A stretch of DNA of 44,739 bases, taken from IMG/VR virus record IMGVR_UViG_647533158_000005. One strand, given 5' to 3'. This document shows, one piece after another, positions 1,422-42,000 of the stretch. A program made the translations under genes and the position numbers. The notes beneath the pieces were generated by a model. The model ran no database searches. It was not told the DNA's origin and worked only from the letters and a program-made list of their open reading frames with translations. The stretch is from a virus. Lineage: Duplodnaviria > Heunggongvirae > Uroviricota > Caudoviricetes. The stretch's first letter is position 1; every line of letters begins with the position of its first letter.

Positions 1422-3866
1422 TTAAAAATCAGCCTGACTCGGGATCAGTTTTTGCCAGATAGCTGAAACGTATTTTGCCTGGTAACGGGCGTCATCAAGT
1501 GCATTATGGCGCTCACCTTCGAATGGAATAGCCGTTCTGGCATCGAAGTCTATGGCTTTCCCCAGCTCAACAATTGTGCGTACATCGCGATCGTTGTGGT
1601 AGCGCCACGGGCAGGGGATCTCCTGCCGTTCGTATGAACGGCGCAAAATCGTGTTGTCGAAGTTGGCTCCATTTCCCCAGACCTGAACAAAAAATTCATC
1701 GGAGTTTTCGTCGATAAATTCCCGCAATTGTAACAGTGCATCATCTAACGGGATTTCATCGGTCATAATGGCAGATTGCGCTTCGCGTGATTGCTTCAGC
1801 CACCATTTAATGGTGTCCCGATCAATGACTCCGCCAGCAGTTTCCAGATCGATAGTCTTACTAAATTCCGGTCCCATATCTCCGGTTTGCGGATCGAAAA
1901 ATATTGCACCTATTGAGATAATCGCGGCATCAGGATTTTTTCCCATGGTTTCAAGGTCGATCATTAGATGGTCACACGTCCTGCTGGTGGATGTGATTTC
2001 GTGATGACCGTTCACCTTAATTGAGAGAGCTGCCGCCTCGCCAGTTTTATTATCGCTGGCGTGATACTGATCACCACCAGTGTCCTCCTTATGAGGATGG
2101 TCAGTGCCTTTCATTTCCTCCGGATCTTTTTTCTGAGATTCAGCCTGATTTTCTTCATCGAATGTTTCCTGATATGTTGCGTCGCCCATCACCGCGCCAC
2201 AATCAGGGCAGTTGCCGCCACCGCGCTGACCGCAGGCGGTGCAGACTTTTTCCGGTTCCTGTTGCGCTACTGGTTCAAGCAGTTTCGTTTCTGGCTCGTT
2301 TTGTCGCGCATTTGGGCCGTTTTGTTCTGCATTTTGGTCGTTCTGTTCCGTTTCTTGCTGGTTCTGGTTCACAGAATCGCGGGTTTCAATCCCCTTCACC
2401 CATTTCGGATCATTCGGGTCGCTAATCCCTTCAACAAATTCTCCACGAGAAGCAGCCAGTAACTTGTCGGCATCAACAGGATTTTGGGGTGGAATGTTTT
2501 TCCTTGCTTCATGGAGTTCTGCCCGCAGTTTCTGATATTTCGCATCAACAGAATTTATCTGTGGCTGAGCATCCATCGACTGAGTGTCCTGATGATGTTC
2601 AGTTGTATCCGGTTCCACTGCTTCAGGCGTTGCCTGTTCATTTGCCATTGCGCCAGATGGTTGCAGTTTTTCTTCATCATCCTGTTTTCCTTCTTCTGTT
2701 ACACGCTGCGGCATCGGGGCAGAGGAGCGACCGCAGGCAATATCTACGATTTCCGGATCAGGGTTGGCATGATCGGTTTCAGTAAGTACCCTGTTCAGAT
2801 ATTCAGTGACATGTGCAGGGATGACCTCGATACCAATTGGTGCTTCTTTCACGGACGCAACCACGATGGCGCGGGAATAATCCAGCCCACCAGGCATGGC
2901 GATGAATTTGTCGCGGAAAACAGAAAAGGGCGGTTTATTTTCAGCGATAATTTCCTCAATGCGTTTAGCTTGTGCCGGATGAAGGTTATAAATGTCCACG
3001 TCCATTGAACGGGCCAGTACGCCAGTGGCTATGTCGCGCGCCAATGATGCCTGATCGTGGATGAAACCGTCGCCGCGATCGGTAAGGTTCCCGCCTCCAG
3101 CATTAGCACCGGAAGCCGTGCGAGTGATGCGTGAAACACGATTTCCTTTCATCCACTCTTTTGTCAGCAGACCTCGATCGGTGTAGTCAGTGTCCAGGTA
3201 TGCTTCGATGAAAGCGGTCATTATCCCTAGTTCCGAATTTACGGGGACGGGAAAAACACTGTCAGTATCCCGAACCAGTTTGTATAAATCCCGAATTTCC
3301 AGCGGCCCCAGTTGAGCTGCTTTATTTGAGATGGCACGGGTTGTAACCGTAGGGAGTTCTTCATCCAGTGCACTATGCAATGCCCGAAGTTTTTCCCGTG
3401 AAACGTGTGTTACCGGTTTCTCGCTGCCGTGTTGTGCAAGCCAGCGAACGGGCAGTTCCTGACCAGAAATCGGCAGGAGCATACCATCCTCAATCTCTGT
3501 CATATCTTCGCCGTTGACGTTGGTATTGTCAGTGCTGGCTGGTTTGTGCTGCGAAGAGGAAGAGGGCGCGCTAAATATCATTGTGATGCCATCTTCCCCG
3601 CCTTTTTCATATCGATTGCAGAATTCGGTATCAAACACGCCTTCCGGTGGAAGGTCATTCACAACGGGTAAATGGACACGGACGGGTTTTTTAAAGTCGT
3701 CTTCATCATAATCGTTGTCATCCATTGCAGTAATGCAGCGGGAGATAGCAACAGATAATTTTTTTGCTGTAGTCCAGTAAAAACCACCTTTAATTCCCAG
3801 GCGTTTTCTGACTTTGTCATTTTTTGCTTCGCAATATAGTGCAAATTCTTCTTTATCAGTGCTCAT
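1422..3866 (-). CDS. Large phage exonuclease-domain protein (C-terminal DEDD-type 3'-5' exonuclease, central CxxC zinc ribbon)
   Basis: 814-aa ORF; C-terminal ~180 aa contain DEDD-like motifs ([10 protein letters not shown] ... HNALDDARY); CTACGQ...CPDCG zinc-ribbon mid-protein; position matches the exo/recombination slot of lambdoid phages. Confidence 0.6.
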
Positions 3867-4323: not shown

Positions 4324-4897
4324 CATTATCGCGTCCTCAACAATGAATTTTGTGATGCAGTGCCTGGTGCCTCCAGGTGACGTTAACCAGTTAACAATTA
4401 ACGCCGGAATACATAAGAGGATACTTACGCCAGTAAAAGACCTCTTTACTGATTTAACTGTTCCGCGTGCGCATAGCCGCATTCACCGCATCACAAAATT
4501 CACTTTAAAAAGGGCGGCAGAGCAGTCACGGAGTAAAACTGATACCGCCAAATGTCACCAGAAAATTGATAACAGAGGGCGTTGCAGCGGGGTTGTCACT
4601 TAAGCGTATGGTCAACCTGACAACCCGGTGTCCTCAACGGGGAAGGAATAACCCCGCCATACTTACCGCCGCGCCATTTCGCGGAGTGCCGCAACCGGAA
4701 GCGCACGGTCGACGAAAATTTAACGACAGGCTATCTATGAACCAGCTACCTCGCCGTGCGCTTTCGCGTTATGGTCTGACTTTTCAGGGAAATATCCTTT
4801 CAGTAAACTGTCAGTGCCGGATGCTCACCCGTGTCCGGCGCACGCACTCCACCTCACCCGTGGAGAACTCCTTAATCACCAACCCTCAGGAGGGTGA

Positions 4898-20966: not shown

Positions 20967-21281
20967 ATGAAGAAAAAATATGAACTGGTTGTTAAAGGGA
21001 TAACTAATTACGGGGATAAGATTACTGTTACTGTGAAGCCGGAAGGTGACTGGCAAGCGTCGCTGTTGTCGCAATATGTGGTGATTGATCTTGAACGTGT
21101 TGAAGGTGCCCCGCTGGAATTTTACGAAGCGGAGGCGAAAAAACAGGCGAAGCAGTTTTTCATGGATATTGCTGTCGGGTTACGTGAAGGGGATGACCTG
21201 CTGACAGAAAAACGCCTCCGTTCAGAGGCGCTGTACACTATAAAAATTAACAGCTCAGATAACACGATTGCTGGTTGTTAG
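20967..21281 (+). CDS. Hypothetical protein inserted between holin and endolysin
   Basis: 104-aa ORF starting 5 nt after the holin stop; no recognisable motif. Confidence 0.45.
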   Translation: MKKKYELVVKGITNYGDKITVTVKPEGDWQASLLSQYVVIDLERVEGAPLEFYEAEAKKQAKQFFMDIAVGLREGDDLLTEKRLRSEALYTIKINSSDNTIAGC

Positions 21282-21517
21282 CCTTTTGTTTCAGTTGGCT
21301 TTCCAATATCTTTCATTGGTAGCAGCATTTCCAGATTGCTTTTGATATATGGATTATTTACATGTTCATTTAATTGATGAATGATTCCATTTTTTTCATT
21401 CTGGTCCAGTACAGAAAATATTACTGTAATCATATATTTAAGAGCTTCAATTTCTTTTGCTGTTGAGGAAGGAGATGAGCAGTCCACTGCAATATTAATC
21501 ATAGCTTCTTTTTGCAT
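21278..21517 (-). CDS. Hypothetical small protein (79 aa), antisense to lysis operon
   Basis: GAGGA Shine-Dalgarno 7 nt upstream of ATG; very AT-rich; 3' end overlaps the 20967..21281 gene by 4 nt. Confidence 0.35.
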   Translation of the reverse strand: MQKEAMINIAVDCSSPSSTAKEIEALKYMITVIFSVLDQNEKNGIIHQLNEHVNNPYIKSNLEMLLPMKDIGKPTETKG

Positions 21518-21647
21518 ATAAAATCCTCAGATGGGGTAGCTCAGCCAACCACCCGGATACTTAACTGGAACACCAGTGTCGCACTACTGGCGGGTGAAGA
21601 TTTAACATATCCAGGGATTCGGAACCGATAAATCCTGATAAATATCC

Positions 21648-22181
21648 ATGAACGCAAAAATCAAATACGGCCTGTCGGCTGCCGTTCTGGCGCTGATTGC
21701 CGCAGGTGCTTCTGCGCCTGAAATCCTCGACCAGTTTCTGGATGAGAAAGAAGGCAACCACCTGACGGCATACCGTGACGGTGCCGGGATATGGACTATC
21801 TGCCGTGGTGCCACCCGGGTGGATGGCAGACCAGTAGTCCCCGGCATGAAGCTGACGAAGGAAAAATGCGCTCAGGTTAATGCCATTGAACGTGACAGGG
21901 CGCTGGCGTGGGTGGAGAAAAACATCAAAGTGCCACTGACTGAACCGCAGAAAGCGGGGATTGCGTCGTTCTGTCCGTACAACATCGGGCCGTCGAAATG
22001 CTTCACCTCAACGTTTTACCGGAAGCTGAACGCCGGAGACCGGAAAGGTGCATGTGCTGAAATCCGTCGCTGGATATATGACGGCGGTAAAGACTGCCGG
22101 AACCACTCAAATAACTGTTACGGGCAGGTGTCGCGGCGTGACCAGGAAAGTGCGCTGGCGTGCTGGGGAATTGATGAATGA
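21648..22181 (+). CDS. R: Endolysin, phage lysozyme with N-terminal SAR (signal-anchor-release) segment
   Basis: 177-aa ORF; hydrophobic Ala/Gly-rich N-terminus ([15 protein letters not shown]) followed by lysozyme-like catalytic region ([20 protein letters not shown]); followed by Rz/Rz1. Confidence 0.85.
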
Positions 22182-22645
22182 ATCGTATCTTAGCCGGAGT
22201 GGCAGTTGTCCTCCTGGTGGCCTGCGGTGCGCTGTGGCTGGCAACAGACCACTACCGGGATAACGCCATCACCTACAAGGCGCAGCGCGATAAAAAAGCC
22301 AGTGAACTGAAGCTGGCGAACGCCACCATTACTGACATGCAGCAGCGCCAGCGTGATGTTGCTGCACTCGATGCAAAATACACGAAGGAGTTAGCCGATG
22401 CGAAAGCTGAAAATGAAACTCTGCGCGCTGATGTTGCCGCTGGTCGCCGCAGCCTGCGCGTCAACGCCACCTGCGTGTCCACCACAGACAAAACCACCGG
22501 AACCGCCAGCATGGATAATGCAGCCCGCCCCAGACTGGCAGACGCCGCTGAATGGAATTATTTCACCCTCAGAGACAAGTTGAAAACGATGCAGGCGCAA
22601 CTGGAAGGGGCGCAGGCATATATCCGTACTCAGTGTCTGAAATAA
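22178..22645 (+). CDS. Rz: Rz-like inner-membrane spanin
   Basis: 155-aa ORF overlapping the endolysin stop; N-terminal transmembrane helix then coiled-coil-like region; contains embedded Rz1 frame. Confidence 0.8.
22398..22583 (+). CDS. Rz1: Rz1-like outer-membrane lipoprotein spanin (embedded in Rz, +1 frame)
   Basis: 61-aa ORF wholly inside Rz; signal peptide with lipobox-like Cys, Pro-rich mature region. Confidence 0.65.
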
Positions 22646-23710
22646 GTTTTGCTGATGCGCCGTATCGTCACCGTATTCCCGCATTAACAGAGACCGCAGC
22701 CATTGCGGGATACTCCTCTGCGTGAGTGTGCGGGGATAATCAAAAACGATACACACCGGGGTTTACCGTGTTAACGGAGCGCGGCGTTGTCCCCTCATGG
22801 TCGCCCGTCCGGTGCGATGGTGGAAGAAACCGGAATGATGAATTGTGAATGCAAAATATGGTTCTGCATTGAATAATACTGGCATTGTTTCCTGTTTACA
22901 TCCAGAACATATTTAAATATGCCTGCCTGGGACAGAGTAAAGTGGCTACGGAAAAAAGGTATGCTACCGGATAAATGTTTTTTGATAACCAGTTTTGTCC
23001 AGATATTGTTTGATCTGTGGTTTATATAAACAGGTCTTTTTTTGGTCTGTACCGTGATCATACTATGGTTATGTGTGGTAAAGCGTATATTCCCTGTAGA
23101 CAGGAAATAAAAACAATGCGAGATATCATTTTTTTTAAGATAGTCAGTGACGGAAATAATATCGCTATTGTGTGATGAAATAAGCAAGGATATAACAGAG
23201 CTAAGCCGGTTGTTCTCTGTGGTGACACAATCTGGAGGCGATAAATCAGAATGCGTGATGTAAAGATTAAGCATGTAAAACCATGGTGTTTAACTGAAGG
23301 TTACTGTGCGGCGGGAAAATAATGAAGTGAAAAGCTAATGTCTATTTGTTATTTTCGCATGATAAAGCAGAGGTATTATTTTTTTGCTAATTTATTCTTT
23401 TGATATGTCTTATCTGTATTTGTGGTTGGTTGTAAACCTCTATTGCAACTGACATCGTCAGCAATGTTGCATACTCATTCAGGTGCAACATGGCGTGGAA
23501 GAAAGAATACAGGTATGAGGATATTTGAGTGGATGATAAAAAAAAGCCGCAGGTGGTATGCGGCATGAAATGGCACGAATCAGTGGATATATCTTTTTTC
23601 GTTTGTATTTTTATCTTATTTCCAGAGGTGTAATCAATTCGAAAAATACGTGAGAACAGAGCGTATATTTTCGACCTTTTTATGGGTCCTCCTGGTGGGG
23701 TCGGCCTGTC

Positions 23711-23735
23711 CACGGGGCGGGTCGGCGCGGAAAAA
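23711..23735. other. Candidate cos site (cosN-like) about 190 bp upstream of terminase small subunit
   Basis: cacggggcgggtcggcgcgg resembles the lambda cosN region (acggggcggcgacctcgcggg); spacing to the terminase small-subunit start matches lambda cosN to Nu1. Confidence 0.4.
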
Positions 23736-23917
23736 GGCGCATTTTTGTGATTTTATCGTCATCATCATCATGTGTGTAACTTATTGTTTTTAATTGTTTT
23801 AATGCAAAAAAGATGATGGATGTGGTTGATTTTTGTTCGACATCTTTGTGGGGCGGTATTTCTTTACAAAAAAAACAGAGTCACTTCTGTTTTGCGGGTT
23901 ACGTGGAGGACGTGTAA

Positions 23918-24394
23918 ATGGACGGCGAGCTGAAAAATATGAAGTTAAATATTAATCAACTGGCATCCCTTTCAGGCCTGCACCGGCAGACTGTTACCGC
24001 AAGAATGGCAGATGTTCCTCTTGCACCAGGCAGCAATGAGAAGAAAAAACTTTATTTCCTGACGGATTTGATTACCTCGCTGCTGGAAAAAACACCATCC
24101 ACCGAAGATGAGGAGATGAATCCACACGATCGCAAGGCATGGTATCAGTCCGAGCGCGAGCGTCTTAAATTTCAGCATGAAACTGTTCAGCTTGTGCCCG
24201 TCAGTGATGTCAGGCGGTCGTTTTCCGTCGTGGTGAAAGCGATAGTTCAGATACTGGAAACATGGCCTGACAGGCTGGAAAGGGACAGGGGGTGGACTGC
24301 ATCACAACTGAACGAAGTGCAGATCGTTGTTGATGAGATCCGTGACACGCTGGAAAAGGCAGTGATTGCCTGCTGTGATGAGGCTGATATGTGA
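23918..24394 (+). CDS. Terminase small subunit (Nu1-like, HTH)
   Basis: 158-aa ORF with GGAGGA Shine-Dalgarno; N-terminal HTH-like segment (LNINQLASLSGLHRQTV); stop overlaps start of terminase large subunit. Confidence 0.75.
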   Translation: MDGELKNMKLNINQLASLSGLHRQTVTARMADVPLAPGSNEKKKLYFLTDLITSLLEKTPSTEDEEMNPHDRKAWYQSERERLKFQHETVQLVPVSDVRRSFSVVVKAIVQILETWPDRLERDRGWTASQLNEVQIVVDEIRDTLEKAVIACCDEADM

Positions 24395-26514
24395 ATCAGG
24401 TGAACGAGAGCCATAGCCGCGCATCCGATATCTGGCGCGAAGTGGCCTCGCTGTTTCGCCCACCTGGCCGGTTACCTGTGGCGGAAGCCATCAGGCGTTA
24501 TATGCGGGTACCACGGGGAGCCAATACTTCCGGTCCGTGGGAGTCATCGCTGACGCCCTATATGATTGACCCCATTAATACATTATCAGCCCGTGAATAT
24601 GACGCGGTGGTGTTTGTGGGACCGGCGCGAACCGGGAAAACCGAAGGGCTGATTGATGGCTGGATTGTGTACGGCATCATCTGTGATCCGGCGGATATGC
24701 TGGTGGTGCAGATGACCGAGACCAAGGCGCGTGAGCATTCCAGAACGCGTCTTTCCAGGACGTTTCGTCACAGCCCGGAGGTCTGCAAACGCCTCAGTCC
24801 TTCCCGTAATGACAACAACGTCCACGATAAAATGTTTCTTGACGGCTCCTTCCTGAAGATTGGCTGGCCGTCGATCACCGTATTTTCCTCTTCGGATTAC
24901 CGTCGTGTGGCGCTGACGGATTATGACCGTTTTCCTGAGAACGTTGACGGTGAAGGGGATGCCTTCACCCTGGCATCAAAGCGTACCACCACCTTTATGT
25001 CCTCAGGGATGACCCTGGTCGAAAGTTCACCCGGGCGGGATATCACTGACACCAAATGGCGATGTGGTGGTGCACATGAGGCTCCGCCAACAACGGGGAT
25101 CCTGTCGCTGTATAACCGGGGAGACCGCCGCCGGTGGTACTGGCCGTGTCCGCACTGCGGGGAATATTTTCAGCCGGTGATGGATAACATGACCGGCTAC
25201 CGGAATAACCCCGATTTTGTGGCTGCAGGTCAGGCTGCCCGTCTGATGTGCCCGCACTGTCGTGGGCTGATTGCCCCGGAGCAGAAACGTGAACTGAATA
25301 ACCAGGGGATCTGGCTTCGTGAAGGTGAACGGGCGGCGGCGGACGGCAGTATCACCGGAACACCACGAAATTCCAGGATTGCGTCATTCTGGATGGAGGG
25401 GCCAGCTGCCGCGTTTCAGACCTGGGAACAACTGATTTTTAAACTGCTGGCGGCAGAAGAAGAGTATGAGCGAACCGGCAGTGAAGAGACCCTGAAAGCG
25501 GTGGTGAACACCGATATCGGACGGCCCTATCTGCCCCGTTCAGCCACGGAACAGCGTAAAAGTGAGCTGCTTGAACAGCGTGCGGAGCCGGTTCCACGGC
25601 GATGTGTGCCGGATGGCGTGCGCTTCATTGAGGCAACAGTGGACGTACAGGGCGGTAAAAACAGACGTTTTGTGGTGCAGATCACCGGATACGGAGAACA
25701 GGGAGAACGCTGGATTGTTGATCGCTACAACATCCGGCATTCACTGCGATGCAGTCCCAACGGTGAAAGTCTGCTGGTTGATCCGGCGGCATATCCGGAG
25801 GACTGGGATTTGTTGCTGACGGATGTGTTCCATAAAACATGGCCGCTGGCGTCTGATCCGGATGTGCGCATGCGGCTGATGGCCATGGCGGTGGATACGG
25901 GCGGTGAAGCCGGGGTGACGGATAACGCCTATCGTTTCTGGCGGCAGTGCCGCCGCGAAGGGCTGGGTAACCGGGTGTTTCTGTTCAAGGGTGATGGCCT
26001 GCGTCGCGACAGACTGATTAACCGTACTTTCCCGGATAACACCGGCAGAAGTGCCCGCCGTGCCAGGGCCAGCGGTGATGTTGCCCTGTGGCTGGTGCAG
26101 ACCGATGCGTTTAAGGACCGGGTGAATAATGCCCTGTGGCGTGACACACCTGGGCCTAACTATATCCACTTTCCCGACTGGCTGGGGCGGTGGTTTTTCG
26201 ATGAACTGACCTATGAGGAGCGCGGCAGTGACGGAAAATGGCGAAAACCGGGCAGGGGCGCTAACGAAGCGTTTGACCTGCTGGTCTACGCGGATGCGCT
26301 TGCCGTTCTGCATGGTTACGAAAAGATCCGCTGGTCGTCTGCACCTGACTGGGCACAACGGGAAACGTGGCTTGTCGGTCCGGAGGAGCGTTCAGGGCTG
26401 ACAACATCACGGGCGCTGCCGGGAAGGAAAGAAAAACGCCGTCACTGGCAGGAAAAGCTGCGCACAGAGCGTGCAGAGGATAATCCGTGGATAACATCAG
26501 GAGGCTGGTTGTGA
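24391..26514 (+). CDS. Terminase large subunit (GpA family)
   Basis: 707-aa ORF; Walker A-like VFVGPARTGKT; CPHCGEYF zinc-finger-like motif as in lambda gpA; GTG start overlapping upstream stop. Confidence 0.9.
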   Translation: MNQVNESHSRASDIWREVASLFRPPGRLPVAEAIRRYMRVPRGANTSGPWESSLTPYMIDPINTLSAREYDAVVFVGPARTGKTEGLIDGWIVYGIICDPADMLVVQMTETKAREHSRTRLSRTFRHSPEVCKRLSPSRNDNNVHDKMFLDGSFLKIGWPSITVFSSSDYRRVALTDYDRFPENVDGEGDAFTLASKRTTTFMSSGMTLVESSPGRDITDTKWRCGGAHEAPPTTGILSLYNRGDRRRWYWPCPHCGEYFQPVMDNMTGYRNNPDFVAAGQAARLMCPHCRGLIAPEQKRELNNQGIWLREGERAAADGSITGTPRNSRIASFWMEGPAAAFQTWEQLIFKLLAAEEEYERTGSEETLKAVVNTDIGRPYLPRSATEQRKSELLEQRAEPVPRRCVPDGVRFIEATVDVQGGKNRRFVVQITGYGEQGERWIVDRYNIRHSLRCSPNGESLLVDPAAYPEDWDLLLTDVFHKTWPLASDPDVRMRLMAMAVDTGGEAGVTDNAYRFWRQCRREGLGNRVFLFKGDGLRRDRLINRTFPDNTGRSARRARASGDVALWLVQTDAFKDRVNNALWRDTPGPNYIHFPDWLGRWFFDELTYEERGSDGKWRKPGRGANEAFDLLVYADALAVLHGYEKIRWSSAPDWAQRETWLVGPEERSGLTTSRALPGRKEKRRHWQEKLRTERAEDNPWITSGGWL

Positions 26515-37919: not shown

Positions 37920-38994
37920 AAACGGGGGCTGAAGCCATCCGCGCACNNNNNNNNNNNNNNNNNNNNNNNNNNNNNNNNNNNNNNNNNNNNNNNNNNNNNN
38001 NNNNNNNNNNNNNNNNNNNNNNNNNNNNNNNNNNNNNNNNNNNNNNNNNNNNNNNNNNNNNNNNNNNNNNNNNNNNNNNNNNNNNNNNNNNNNNNNNNNN
38101 NNNNNNNNNNNNNNNNNNNNNNNNNNNNNNNNNNNNNNNNNNNNNNNNNNNNNNNNNNNNNNNNNNNNNNNNNNNNNNNNNNNNNNNNNNNNNNNNNNNN
38201 NNNNNNNNNNNNNNNNNNNNNNNNNNNNNNNNNNNNNNNNNNNNNNNNNNNNNNNNNNNNNNNNNNNNNNNNNNNNNNNNNNNNNNNNNNNNNNNNNNNN
38301 NNNNNNNNNNNNNNNNNNNNNNNNNNNNNNNNNNNNNNNNNNNNNNNNGGCGTCACCGGGCATGGCGCGAATCTGCCTTTACGGGGATTTACAACGATTT
38401 GGCCGCCGCATCGACCTGCGTGTGAAAACGGGGGCTGAAGCCATCCGCGCACTGGCCACACAGCTCCCGGTGTTTCGTCAGAAACTGAGCGACGGCTGGT
38501 ATCAGGTACGGATTGCCGGGCGGGACGTCAGCACGTTCGGGTTAACGGCGCAGTTACATGAGACTCTGCCTGATGGCGCTGTGATTCATATTGTTCCCAG
38601 AGTCGCCGGGGCCAAGTCAGGTGGCGTATTCCAGATTGTCCTGGGGGCTGCCGCCATTGCCGGATCATTCTTTACCGCCGGAGCCACCCTTGCAGCATGG
38701 GGGGCAGCCATTGGGGCCGGTGGTATGACCGGCATCCTGTTTTCTCTCGGTGCCAGTATGGTGCTCGGTGGTGTGGCGCAGATGCTGGCACCGAAAGCCA
38801 GAACTCCCCGTACACAGACAACGGATAACGGCAAACAGAACACCTATTTCTCCTCACTGGATAACATGGTTGCCCAGGGCAATGTTCTGCCGGTTCTGTA
38901 CGGTGAAATGCGCGTGGGGTCACGCGTGGTTTCTCAGGAGATCAGCACGGCAGACGAAGGGGATGGTGGTCAGGTTGTGGTGATTGGTCGCTGA
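37817..38994 (+). CDS. I: Tail assembly protein I (interrupted by assembly gap and duplicated flank)
   Basis: Starts MAATHTLPLASPGMARICLYGDLQRFGRR as lambda gpI; after the gap the same 104 nt recur and the frame continues to ...QVVVIGR; removing gap plus duplicate gives a 223-aa protein. Confidence 0.75.
37947..38348. other. Assembly gap (402 N)
   Basis: Run of n; identical 104-nt sequence on both sides (37843-37946 = 38349-38452). Confidence 0.95.
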
Positions 38995-39054: not shown

Positions 39055-42000
39055 ATGGGTAAAGGCAGCAGTAAGGGGCATACCCCGCGCGAAGCGAAGG
39101 ACAACCTGAAGTCCACGCAGCTGCTGAGTGTGATCGATGCCATCAGCGAAGGGCCGGTTGAAGGTCCGGTGGATGGATTAAAAAGCGTGCTGCTGAACAG
39201 TACGCCGGTGCTGGACAGTGAGGGGAATACCAATATATCCGGCGTCACGGTGGTGTTCCGGGCCGGTGAGCAGGAGCAGACACCGCCGGAGGGATTTGAA
39301 TCCTCCGGCTCCGAGACGGTGCTGGGTACGGAAGTGAAGTACGACACGCCGATTACCCGGACCATCACGTCTGCAAACATCGACCGTCTGCGCTTTACCT
39401 TCGGTGTGCAGGCACTGGTGGAAACCACCTCAAAGGGTGACAGGAATCCGTCGGAAGTCCGTCTGCTGGTTCAGATACAACGTAACGGTGGCTGGGTGAC
39501 GGAAAAAGACATCACCATTAAGGGCAAAACCACCTCGCAGTATCTGGCCTCGGTGGTGGTGGGTAACCTGCCGCCGCGCCCGTTTAATATCCGGATGTGC
39601 AGGATGACGCCGGACAGCACCACAGACCAGCTGCAGAACAAAACGCTCTGGTCGTCATACACCGAAATCATCGATGTGAAACAGTGCTACCCGAACACGG
39701 CACTGGTTGGCGTGCAGGTGGACTCGGAGCAGTTCGGCAGCCAGCAGGTGAGCCGTAATTATCATCTTCGCGGGCGCATTCTGCAGGTGCCGTCGAACTA
39801 TAACCCGCAGACACGGCAATACAGCGGTATCTGGGACGGAACGTTTAAGCCGGCATACAGCAACAACCCGGCCTGGTGTCTGTGGGATATGCTGACCCAC
39901 CCGCGCTACGGCATGGGGAAACGTCTTGGTGCGGCAGATGTGGATAAATGGGCGCTGTATGTCATCGGCCAGTACTGCGACCAGTCGGTGCCGGACGGCT
40001 TTGGCGGCACGGAGCCGCGCATCACCTGTAATGCGTACCTGACCACACAGCGCAAGGCGTGGGATGTGCTCAGTGATTTCTGCTCGGCGATGCGCTGTAT
40101 GCCGGTATGGAACGGGCAGACGCTGACGTTCGTGCAGGACCGGCCGTCGGATAAGGTGTGGACCTATAACCGCAGTAATGTGGTGATGCCGGATGATGGC
40201 GNNNNNNNNNNNNNNNNNNNNNNNNNNNNNNNNNNNNNNNNNNNNNNNNNNNNNNNNNNNNNNNNNNNNNNNNNNNNNNNNNNNNNNNNNNNNNNNNNNN
40301 NNNNNNNNNNNNNNNNNNNNNNNNNNNNNNNNNNNNNNNNNNNNNNNNNNNNNNNNNNNNNNNNNNNNNNNNNNNNNNNNNNNNNNNNNNNNNNNNNNNN
40401 NNNNNNNNNNNNNNNNNNNNNNNNNNNNNNNNNNNNNNNNNNNNNNNNNNNNNNNNNNNNNNNNNNNNNNNNNNNNNNNNNNNNNNNNNNNNNNNNNNNN
40501 NNNNNNNNNNNNNNNNNNNNNNNNNNNNNNNNNNNNNNNNNNNNNNNNNNNNNNNNNNNNNNNNNNNNNNNNNNNNNNNNNNNNNNNNNNNNNNNNNNNN
40601 NNNNNNNNNNNNNNNNNNNNNNNNNNNNNNNNNNNNNNNNNNNNNNNNNNNNNNNNNNNNNNNNNNNNNNNNNNNNNNNNNNNNNNNNNNNNNNNNNNNN
40701 NNNNNNNNNNNNNNNNNNNNNNNNNNNNNNNNNNNNNNNNNNNNNNNNNNNNNNNNNNNNNNNNNNNNNNNNNNNNNNNNNNNNNNNNNNNNNNNNNNNN
40801 NNNNNNNNNNNNNNNNNNNNNNNNNNNNNNNNNNNNNNNNNNNNNNNNNNNNNNNNNNNNNNNNNNNNNNNNNNNNNNNNNNNNNNNNNNNNNNNNNNNN
40901 NNNNNNNNNNNNNNNNNNNNNNNNNNNNNNNNNNNNNNNNNNNNNNNNNNNNNNNNNNNNNNNNNNNNNNNNNNNNNNNNNNNNNNNNNNNNNNNNNNNN
41001 NNNNNNNNNNNNNNNNNNNNNNNNNNNNNNNNNNNNNNNNNNNNNNNNNNNNNNNNNNNNNNNNNNNNNNNNNNNNNNNNNNNNNNNNNNNNNNNNNNNN
41101 NNNNNNNNNNNNNNNNNNNNNNNNNNNNNNNNNNNNNNNNNNNNNNNNNNNGGACAGCAGGGCGAACCGGCATCGGTATCGTTCCGGATTGCCGCACCGG
41201 CAGCGCCTGCCACCATTGAACTGATACCGGGGTATTTTCAGATAACGGCGGTCCCGAAACTGGCGGTATATGACCCGACGGTGCAGTTTGAGTTCTGGTT
41301 CTCGGAAAAGCGGATTGCGGAAATCAGGCAGGTTGAAACCACAGCCCGCTATCTTGGCACGGCGCTGTACTGGATAGCCGCCAGTATCAATATCAGGCCA
41401 GGCCATGATTATTATTTTTACGTTCGCAGTGTTAACACCGTGGGTAAGTCGGCATTTGTGGAGGCCGTCGGTCAGCCCAGCGATGATGCGGAAGGTTATC
41501 TTAATTTTTACAAGGGGCTGATTAATAAAACGCATCTTGGCAGGGAACTGCTGGAGAATTTCGAACTGACAGAGGATAACGCCAGCAGGCTTGATGAGTT
41601 CACGAAACAGTGGAAAGACGCTAACGATAAATGGAATGCCATGTGGGGCGTCAAAATTGAGCAGACCGAAGACGGTAAACATTATGTTGCCGGGATTGGC
41701 CTCAGCATGGAGGAGACGGAAGAAGGAAAACTGAGCGAGTTTCTTGTCGCCGCCAACCGTATCGCGTTTATTGACCCGGCAAACGGTAACTCAACGCCGA
41801 TGTTTGTGGCACAGGGCGATCAGATATTCATGAACGACGTGTTCCTGAAACGCCTGACGGCTCCCACCATTACCAGCGGCGGTAATCCCCCTGCATTTTC
41901 CCTGACTCCGGACGGAAAGCTGACCGCTAAAAATGCGGATATCAGCGGCAGTATCACCGCCAGTTCAGGCACGCTCAACAATGTGACGATAAACCAGGAC

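Follow-up and report, generated by a model that had tools for sequence, protein, structure and literature searches.

Accessory genes beside cos in lambda-like phages

Morons are extra genes lodged between essential blocks of a phage late operon, a concept for which Juhala et al. 2000 is the reference (as cited in PMC4104026) and of which lambda bor is an example. Genes of the bor type stand on the strand opposite to the late operon, have their own promoter and a deviant base composition, and are patchily present among relatives. In lambda, bor and lambdap78 (both minus) are followed by lambdap79 (plus) and cos, and in the DLP12 prophage of Escherichia coli K-12 the order is rzpD (plus), borD (minus), ybcV (minus, a DUF1398 gene), ybcW (plus) and nohD (plus); the bor/cosQ slot thus normally also holds an antisense DUF1398 gene. 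The present analysis concerns the matching place in a stretch of 44,739 nucleotides from a virus of the Caudoviricetes, IMG/VR record IMGVR_UViG_647533158_000005, hereafter the window. About 1 kb of it, at 22650-23700 between the lysis gene Rz and cos, had been described in an original prediction, made from the sequence alone, as AT-rich and lacking credible open reading frames (ORFs). This segment carries a minus-strand gene for a 159-aa protein of the DUF1398 family, and it is best read, with a probability of roughly 85%, as an accessory-gene slot accompanied by a 5' RNA element, a terminator module and cos, not as an empty spacer.

The relatives of this gene have been met in several contexts. 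Knock-down of lambdap78 leaves plaque formation unaffected in lambda (PMC10695390). In a pdhR mutant, ybcV mRNA is down ten-fold, and PdhR binds between ybcV and ybcW (PMC7660256); this PdhR dependence means that one relative is expressed from a prophage in uninfected cells. The ydfO gene is stress-inducible, being strongly induced by ionic liquid, and its overexpression reportedly increases oxidative-stress resistance (PMC4077768). These traits of lambdap78, ybcV and ydfO fit an accessory role for the gene described here. In the literature searched for DUF1398, ybcV, ydfO and lambdap78, no established function or phenotype was found, and the main text of Wang et al. 2010 does not mention ydfO.

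An antisense DUF1398 gene between Rz and cos

The segment had been credited with only low-complexity antisense ORFs. The 159-aa ORF among them matches Pfam DUF1398 (PF07166) with 75.9 bits against a gathering cut-off of 22 (E 3.6e-21), residues 41-143 lying on profile positions 15-117 of 119, and its product also matches the sequence of YdfO in PDB entry 2HH8 (E 1.3e-7). Compared with three relatives of 84-89% DNA identity, the ratio of nonsynonymous to synonymous substitution rates (dN/dS) is 0.10-0.18 at a dS of 0.39-0.73, and third codon positions hold 34-53 of the 54-76 differences. The N-terminal 90 codons and the C-terminal 69 codons are alike in substitution behaviour, so that the ATG at 23274 marks the real start region. 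The ORF is intact in every recovered locus and is annotated as a coding sequence across E. coli genomes, PGAP naming it "DUF1398 family protein" in M8 (99.3% DNA identity), A8, A39 and others. All of this points to a real protein-coding gene under purifying selection, the product of which is best explained as a soluble protein of the DUF1398 family.

The fold leads to the same family. An AlphaFold 2 model computed from 21 sequences, which is a prediction and not an experimental structure, has a mean predicted local distance difference test score (pLDDT) of 80.9 and a predicted template modelling score of 0.75. When this model is compared with the PDB by Foldseek, 2HH8 is the sole significant match (E 7.5e-8, probability 1.00, TM-score 0.63/0.77), and the modelled protein thus shares the YdfO fold.

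A contrary account would leave the kilobase non-coding, as a decayed moron or an AT-rich spacer with ORFs that are chance products of low complexity. The observation of AT-richness behind it is correct, as the GC content in 200-nt windows drops to 0.33-0.41 at ~22,850-23,900 against 0.53-0.60 in the Rz and terminase genes, and the 848 bp at 22837-23684, with 35.8% GC against 49.8% for the whole window, are among the lowest ~4% of same-size windows. The low GC holds only from ~22,850 onwards, whereas the first ~185 nt of the predicted interval (22650-22834) have 57.8% GC and form a separate conserved element. Besides the low GC, three further features would suit a non-coding segment: no recognisable Shine-Dalgarno sequence precedes the ATG of the DUF1398 ORF, coding signal is absent from the 410 bp that separate it from cosQ, and a second antisense ORF is spurious. 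The latter, a 108-aa frame at 23387-23713, has no Pfam, NCBIfam or PHROGs hit, runs across cosQ and the terminator, and is not conserved as a frame in the related locus L002. Set against the profile match, the low dN/dS with its third-position bias, the confident model with the YdfO fold and the integrity of the ORF in all recovered loci, the non-coding account is hardly tenable. The placement of the segment between Rz and cos, also part of the prediction, is borne out by its neighbours (Table 1).

The gene is best described as an intact antisense accessory gene, that is, a moron. Like a bor-type moron, it has been added between essential blocks of the late operon and is read from the other strand, in a cassette of deviant base composition and patchy presence among relatives; a promoter of its own is predicted. 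The closest phage relatives sharing its terminase, Shiga toxin (Stx) phages such as LC567830, follow the window as far as 22834 and resume from 23684, and in the Stx2d phage 112808 only 34 bp stand in place of the 849 bp at 22835-23683, between flanks that are 89-93% identical. The decayed moron offered as one possibility was therefore right as to the kind of gene but not as to the decay, since the gene is intact and under selection. Nor is it the counterpart of lambda bor, although the segment had been placed where lambda carries bor and cosQ. It corresponds to lambdap78, which lies between bor and cos, and Bor is a lipoprotein unrelated to the DUF1398 protein. Unlike lambda and DLP12, the locus has no bor and no lambdap79/ybcW partner.

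This correspondence is supported by position and by distant similarity. A tblastn search finds a match at lambda 47,072-47,374 on the minus strand, within lambdap78 (47,042-47,575, minus), and by BLASTP the two proteins are 26% identical (E 1e-11). The arrangement of lambdap78 and YbcV, opposed to the late operon and flanked by the lysis genes and the small terminase, recurs in lambda, DLP12, the E. coli loci L001-L005 and 22 IMG/VR loci; in 10/10 measured loci the gene lies 367-751 nt from cosQ and points away from it. Judged by sequence and position, the gene is a positional and distant sequence homologue of lambdap78 and of YbcV (DLP12), and a family homologue of YdfO (Qin). It differs from other family members by a ~19-aa N-terminal extension, which is under selection, and its last ~13 codons enter the RNA element, whereas lambdap78 stops short of it.

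The 159-aa protein is rare. Its relatives form 11 clusters at 90% identity, all from E. coli, and one 50%-identity cluster of their own, the next relative being 32% identical and other family members 22-32% identical. The gene is found in ~30 of 5,426 complete E. coli genomes, many of them from isolates of rodents and other animals, and on six IMG/VR contigs; a scan of GTDB species representatives with the protein found no relative. It is thus a new, rare and diverged member of a known family at a known accessory slot, and as such ordinary in kind. The result is corrective, an apparent gene desert being an ordinary accessory slot with a diverged DUF1398 member, in a family also found in lambda, DLP12 and Qin at one of the best-studied spots of molecular biology. 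Lack of conservation had been named as what would refute the original prediction, and it is not found: related prophages keep the gene as well as its promoter region and the RNA element.

Upstream region and proposed role of the gene

A sigma-70 promoter is predicted before the gene (Table 1), from which a transcript would start near 23309 with a 5' untranslated region of ~35 nt. Both hexamers, with ~175 nt upstream of the ATG, are kept in 11/11 gene-bearing loci, and further upstream the loci fall into unrelated classes. Between the window and L002 this upstream segment is 82% identical, as compared with 79% at third codon positions. A palindrome that precedes the predicted start, and that recurs with minor changes in 11/11 loci, may be a candidate operator for a regulator. 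A PdhR box as in ybcV is not supported for this region, the local palindrome being CTGAC-N3-GTCAG and not TGGT-N3-ACCA. Being rare but under strong selection, and coming with a conserved promoter region and a candidate operator, this variant offers another handle on the role of DUF1398.

In a lysogen, host RNA polymerase would transcribe the DUF1398 gene leftward from TAGACA-17-TATTTT, and the protein would act on host physiology and not on phage assembly, being dispensable for lytic growth. During lytic growth, the Q-modified PR' late transcript would read rightward through the whole segment, fold the 5' element, cross cos in circular or concatemeric DNA and enter the terminase genes.

Instead of modulating host physiology, the protein could be a prophage defence or superinfection-exclusion factor. 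Protection of the lysogen is a common role of accessory genes at this slot, bor included, a defence system is known to sense the neighbouring lambda gene lambdap79, and the distribution of the gene is patchy and strain-specific. Such a function is nevertheless improbable, as no PADLOC model matches the protein or lambdap78, no enzymatic or nucleic-acid-binding motif and no structural neighbour supports it, and no phenotype was found in the published literature searched.

Several observations, in addition to the missing Shine-Dalgarno sequence, weigh against the accessory-slot explanation as a whole. The promoter scan returned 5 sites where 3.9+/-2.6 are expected by chance, the TAGACA site scoring 9/12; as the scan is at chance level in AT-rich DNA, the promoter draws its support from conservation alone. 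Behind the gene, the terminator scan found only a weak hairpin without U-tract at 22694-22708, and the strong terminator of the segment lies upstream of the gene and not behind it, so that the cassette is without the clear terminator of the moron model. The negative PADLOC result belongs here too, as does the lack of informative structural neighbours: the PDB gives YdfO alone and BFVD nothing, which leaves no functional lead. Finally, positions 22798-22834, minus-strand codons 147-159 of the ORF, are the antisense of the terminal hairpin of the RNA element. The tail IIPVSSTIAPD is invariant while the AlphaFold 2 pLDDT is <50 at residues 151-158, and this invariance may come from the overlapping RNA element rather than from the protein. 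Some relatives have no stop at this place, and their ORF extends 18 codons into the element, giving 177-aa forms.

A conserved, probably structured element behind the lysis genes

Small RNAs or regulatory elements had also been suggested for the segment. Rfam 15 gives no hit at E<=1 in 21000-25000, and what it gives at E<=10 in 22600-22900 is chance matches only, scoring 16 and 14 bits where the gathering thresholds are 37.6 and 45. The suggestion survives in two other forms, a covariation-supported element directly after Rz and an orphan terminator next to cos.

The element is found in 398 phage records at 73-93% identity, including lambda, phage 21, mEp460, Stx1 and Stx2 phages and Salmonella S107. 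The lambda copy, at 46,861-47,040, is non-coding there. The ends of the element are sharp, and both flanks are unrelated between phages and fall into many classes. Of 120 IMG/VR loci examined, 104 have a recognisable Rz, and in 104/104 it precedes the element in the same orientation, sometimes with bor in between. What follows downstream is either terminase genes, of the Nu1 or the DUF1441 type, or a DUF1398 gene abutting in antisense, which reaches the 3' end of the element at 0-16 nt for the lambdap78 type and at 25-34 nt for matches of the type found here.

The element does not behave as a coding sequence. Plus-strand ORFs annotated over it in Stx2 II and VT2-Sakai are rejected because the indels among relatives are not multiples of three, and a 10-codon ORF at its start (ATG CGC ... 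TAA) is found neither in lambda nor in S107.

A scan of GTDB with a DNA pattern of the element gave genuine copies in Escherichia species and Intestinirhabdus only. About 22 further hits, identical to lambda and assigned to Cohnella, Brevibacillus, Flavobacterium, Pedobacter, Pseudomonas, Shewanella and others (among contigs L149-L185), sit on contigs of ~3.5 kb or ~48.5 kb; these hits in unrelated taxa look like contamination of public assemblies by lambda control DNA, which accounts for most of the hits that are not genuine copies.

The fold obtained with RNAalifold has two long-range helices, GUAUCGU/ACGAURC and UAUUCCCGCAU/GUGCGGGGAUA, together with small inner hairpins, a variable domain and a terminal hairpin CCGGU...ACCGG. 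In 90 distinct sequences, retrieved with a pattern that fixed part of the 3' strands, the 30 pairs of this fold are paired in 98.5% of cells, compared with 36-58% when the partners are slid. Compensated pairs number 10/30, whereas shuffles give 3.8+/-0.9 (0/500), and compensated cells 44 versus 9.6, by a measure with a false-positive rate of 0-1% in the tool's own trials. The compensations comprise C-G to G-C in the lambda clade, G-C to U-A in the terminal hairpin of 17 sequences, and two adjacent pairs in S107; an independent pattern scan adds U-A in E. ruysiae and A-U in Intestinirhabdus. An alternative helix, CACCGG/CCGGUG, is rejected because it is the terminal hairpin, and not this helix, that compensates the G-to-U change of the 17 sequences. 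The pairs include 451 G.U cells and 12 A.C cells, and because of this asymmetry pairing is 98.5% on the plus strand and 82.2% on the minus strand, which speaks for an RNA of the same sense as the late transcript. The element is thus probably a folded part of the late (PR') mRNA.

Whether it amounts to a functional and so far undescribed class of structured RNA in lambda-like late operons, with a copy at the lambda position given above, is an evenly balanced proposition. Two results count against it: the single-sequence folding energy is unremarkable (z -0.80), and the compensatory changes are limited to a handful of lineages. The first of these also favours a rival account of clearly lower likelihood, in which the element is a recombination homology patch (a module linker) or a site acting at the DNA level. 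The element does lie exactly at a mosaic joint with unrelated flanks on either side, and most of its sequences are closely related, the retrieval pattern adding to their uniformity in the 3' strands. The excess of compensated pairs over shuffles, the occurrence of compensatory changes in several lineages (the lambda clade, the 17 sequences, S107, E. ruysiae and Intestinirhabdus) and the excess of G.U over A.C cells speak against this account, and the last of these, a strand asymmetry, would not be expected from a DNA duplex site or a pure recombination patch.

RNase III hairpins, as in T7 early mRNA and the lambda sib and N-leader RNAs, and the put RNAs of HK022 are cis-acting RNA structures of phages. 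Like them, the element would be a folded segment within a long polycistronic phage transcript, and its layout, with a 7-bp lower stem, an asymmetric internal loop and a 10-11-bp upper stem, recalls RNase III substrates, by analogy. It has no sequence or Rfam relationship with these structures and is larger (~180 nt), having also a variable 3' domain and a hairpin at its end. A possible role is that of a processing or stability signal splitting the lysis part of the 27-kb late mRNA from its packaging and head part. The searched literature contains no description of the element, which may be the new item of the segment and the part worth follow-up. Should the element prove to be a functional RNA, the late transcript of lambda would gain a cis-acting signal, one that is directly testable in lambda.

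The orphan terminator module

Between the promoter region of the DUF1398 gene and cosQ lies a module of ~150 bp that contains a strong intrinsic terminator, oriented like the gene and situated upstream of its promoter region (Table 1). Between the window and L002, the hairpin and U-tract are identical at 27/28 positions, compared with 64-67% identity in the flanks and 79% at third codon positions. The blocks TTGATTAC, AAAT.A.ATAAAAA and ATTCGTGCCATTT are conserved in three variants of the module.

The module occurs in 7/5,426 complete E. coli genomes. Three of these 7 (e.g. 2012C-4221, locus L006) and one IMG/VR contig have it but no DUF1398 gene, and prophages that have lost the gene (L006, L016) retain the terminator. 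There the module is bracketed by a direct repeat, GGAAGAAACC(G/T)GA (L006 ~2520-2720; L016), which suggests deletion from and insertion into the slot between short repeats that stem from the end of the conserved element.

In the locus of E. coli M8 Switzerland (L004, NZ_CP019953), a frameshifted pseudogene of a helix-turn-helix regulator at 3183-3352, between the DUF1398 gene and cos, stands instead of the terminator module, a further variant of the slot. Cargo turnover hence also affects the space upstream of the gene itself.

The terminator would be either an insulator or the end of a short transcript. As an insulator, it would stop leftward antisense transcripts coming from the cos/terminase leader and shield expression of the DUF1398 gene. 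It stands just upstream of the conserved promoter region on the same strand, its strong conservation is confined to the hairpin and U-tract as an insulator needs, and a promoter-like site lies at 23778-23750 on the minus strand. This function remains doubtful: that site is a 9/12 match of chance frequency, about half of the gene-bearing loci (L004, L005, L012-L014) have no terminator, and the module persists where the gene is gone.

Alternatively, the module could be the gene of a small RNA (sRNA) of ~60-80 nt on the minus strand, acting in trans like other sRNAs of E. coli prophages, starting near 23610-23625 and ending at the terminator, a proposal compatible with the accessory-slot explanation of the segment. 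The terminator is strong and has nothing obvious to terminate, the hairpin and the 13 nt before it (ATTCGTGCCATTT) are kept among the three diverged variants, and prophages from which the DUF1398 gene has gone retain the module at 95% identity. Moreover, sRNAs of comparable size are well documented from prophages (PMC4104026). Taken as a whole, the proposal is rather unlikely, given that no convincing -35/-10 pair at proper spacing was found for the putative RNA, that its body, at 64-67% identity between variants, falls below third codon positions, that its fold is no better than shuffles (z -0.85) with no Rfam hit, and that the module is so rare. A new sRNA encoded beside cos would be a second novelty of the segment, with a weaker claim than that of the conserved element.

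The sRNAs known from prophages of enterohaemorrhagic and enteropathogenic E. coli (AsxR, AgvB, Esr41, Pas) were considered as the identity of the module and rejected for their different location and lack of a match. Along with STnc100, they are resembled by the module in size and in their strong Rho-independent terminator, whereas they lie downstream of PR', before the lysis genes, at the PR' moron site; none matches the module region in Rfam. The window itself carries STnc100, sok and DicF elsewhere than in the module.

The cos region

The suggested presence of cosQ in the segment is supported by alignment with lambda. The sequence at 23684-23730 (GGGTCCTCCTGGTGGGGTCGGCCTGTCCACGGGGCGGGTCGGCGCGG) aligns with the junction of the right and left ends of lambda (GGGTCCTTTCCGGTGATCCGACAGGTTACG joined to GGGCGGCGACCTCGCGG), and includes the lambda heptamer GGGTCCT, which we take to be cosQ. 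The heptamer is conserved in the Stx-phage relatives and in L006. As in lambda, ACGGGGCGG... comes ~24 nt after it, with the small-terminase gene directly downstream, and the locus thus appears to have a lambda-type cosQ and cosN at conserved spacing. The predicted 12-nt cohesive end would be GGGCGGGTCGGC, compared with GGGCGGCGACCT in lambda. All related records found are prophages or circularly permuted, and none ends at 23715-23726.

The cosB side differs from that of lambda and serves a DUF1441-type small terminase, not Nu1. On the other side, GATAAT.ATTATCA precedes cosQ in lambda and the Stx phages, and the terminator module takes its place here. A 99%-identical relative in E. coli M8 (L001, NZ_CP010191) has, at ~3400-3600, a hybrid cos when compared with window positions 23684-23740: its cosQ side is of the type found here, and to the right of cosN it is of the lambda type, into a Nu1-type small terminase. 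Joining a left arm of one type to a right arm of the other, it places a mosaic joint at cosN.

Table 1. Coordinates of the segment between Rz and the terminase genes, of its neighbours and of RNA genes elsewhere in the window
Feature	Position	Strand	Basis or context
DUF1398 (YbcV/YdfO/lambdap78 family) gene, 159 aa, accessory gene (moron)	22795-23274	minus	Pfam, fold, dN/dS, PGAP
Predicted sigma-70 promoter TAGACA-17 nt-TATTTT	23316-23344	minus	9/12 in consensus scan; conservation
Palindrome CTGAC-ATC-GTCAG, candidate operator	23449-23461	strandless	read from sequence; ~140 nt upstream of predicted start
Non-coding element, ~180 nt (ATGCGCCGTATCGTC...GGTGGAAGAAACCGGA)	22655-22834	plus	3' end of lysis module
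Strong intrinsic terminator GCCGCA-TACCACC-TGCGGC (23564-23546), then U8	23537-23564	minus	terminator scan
Rest of ~150-bp terminator module; short transcript of ~60-80 nt or spacer	23565-23683	minus	conserved blocks
cosQ-like heptamer GGGTCCT	23684-23690	plus	alignment with lambda heptamer ~30 nt before right end
cosN-like site; predicted cohesive end at 23715-23726	23712-23730	plus	alignment with lambda
cosB-side leader to DUF1441 small terminase	23731-23917	plus	89-90% identical to Stx phages with same terminase
Rz (PF03245) with embedded Rz1 frame	22178-22645		left neighbour of segment
Small terminase, DUF1441 type (PF07278, E 3e-48)	23918-24394		right neighbour; large terminase next
DicF	4512-4563	minus	Rfam, gathering threshold
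sok antitoxin RNA	11127-11302	plus	Rfam, gathering threshold
Two tRNAs	16329-16401, 16407-16481	plus	Rfam, gathering threshold
STnc100	17112-17301	plus	Rfam, gathering threshold

Other features of the window

The Rfam hits elsewhere in the window (DicF, sok, the two tRNAs and STnc100) are the usual RNA cargo of Stx-like lambdoid prophages. Runs of N mask 37947-38348 and 40202-41151 in the tail region, and ORF lists are meaningless there. Between the holin region and the lysozyme gene, a 79-aa antisense ORF at 21278-21517 (minus) lies where the GC content is 0.30-0.36 (21200-21500) and is possibly another moron; a hypothetical protein is annotated at the matching place in E. coli M8 (L001 478-750) and A39 (L005 483-755).

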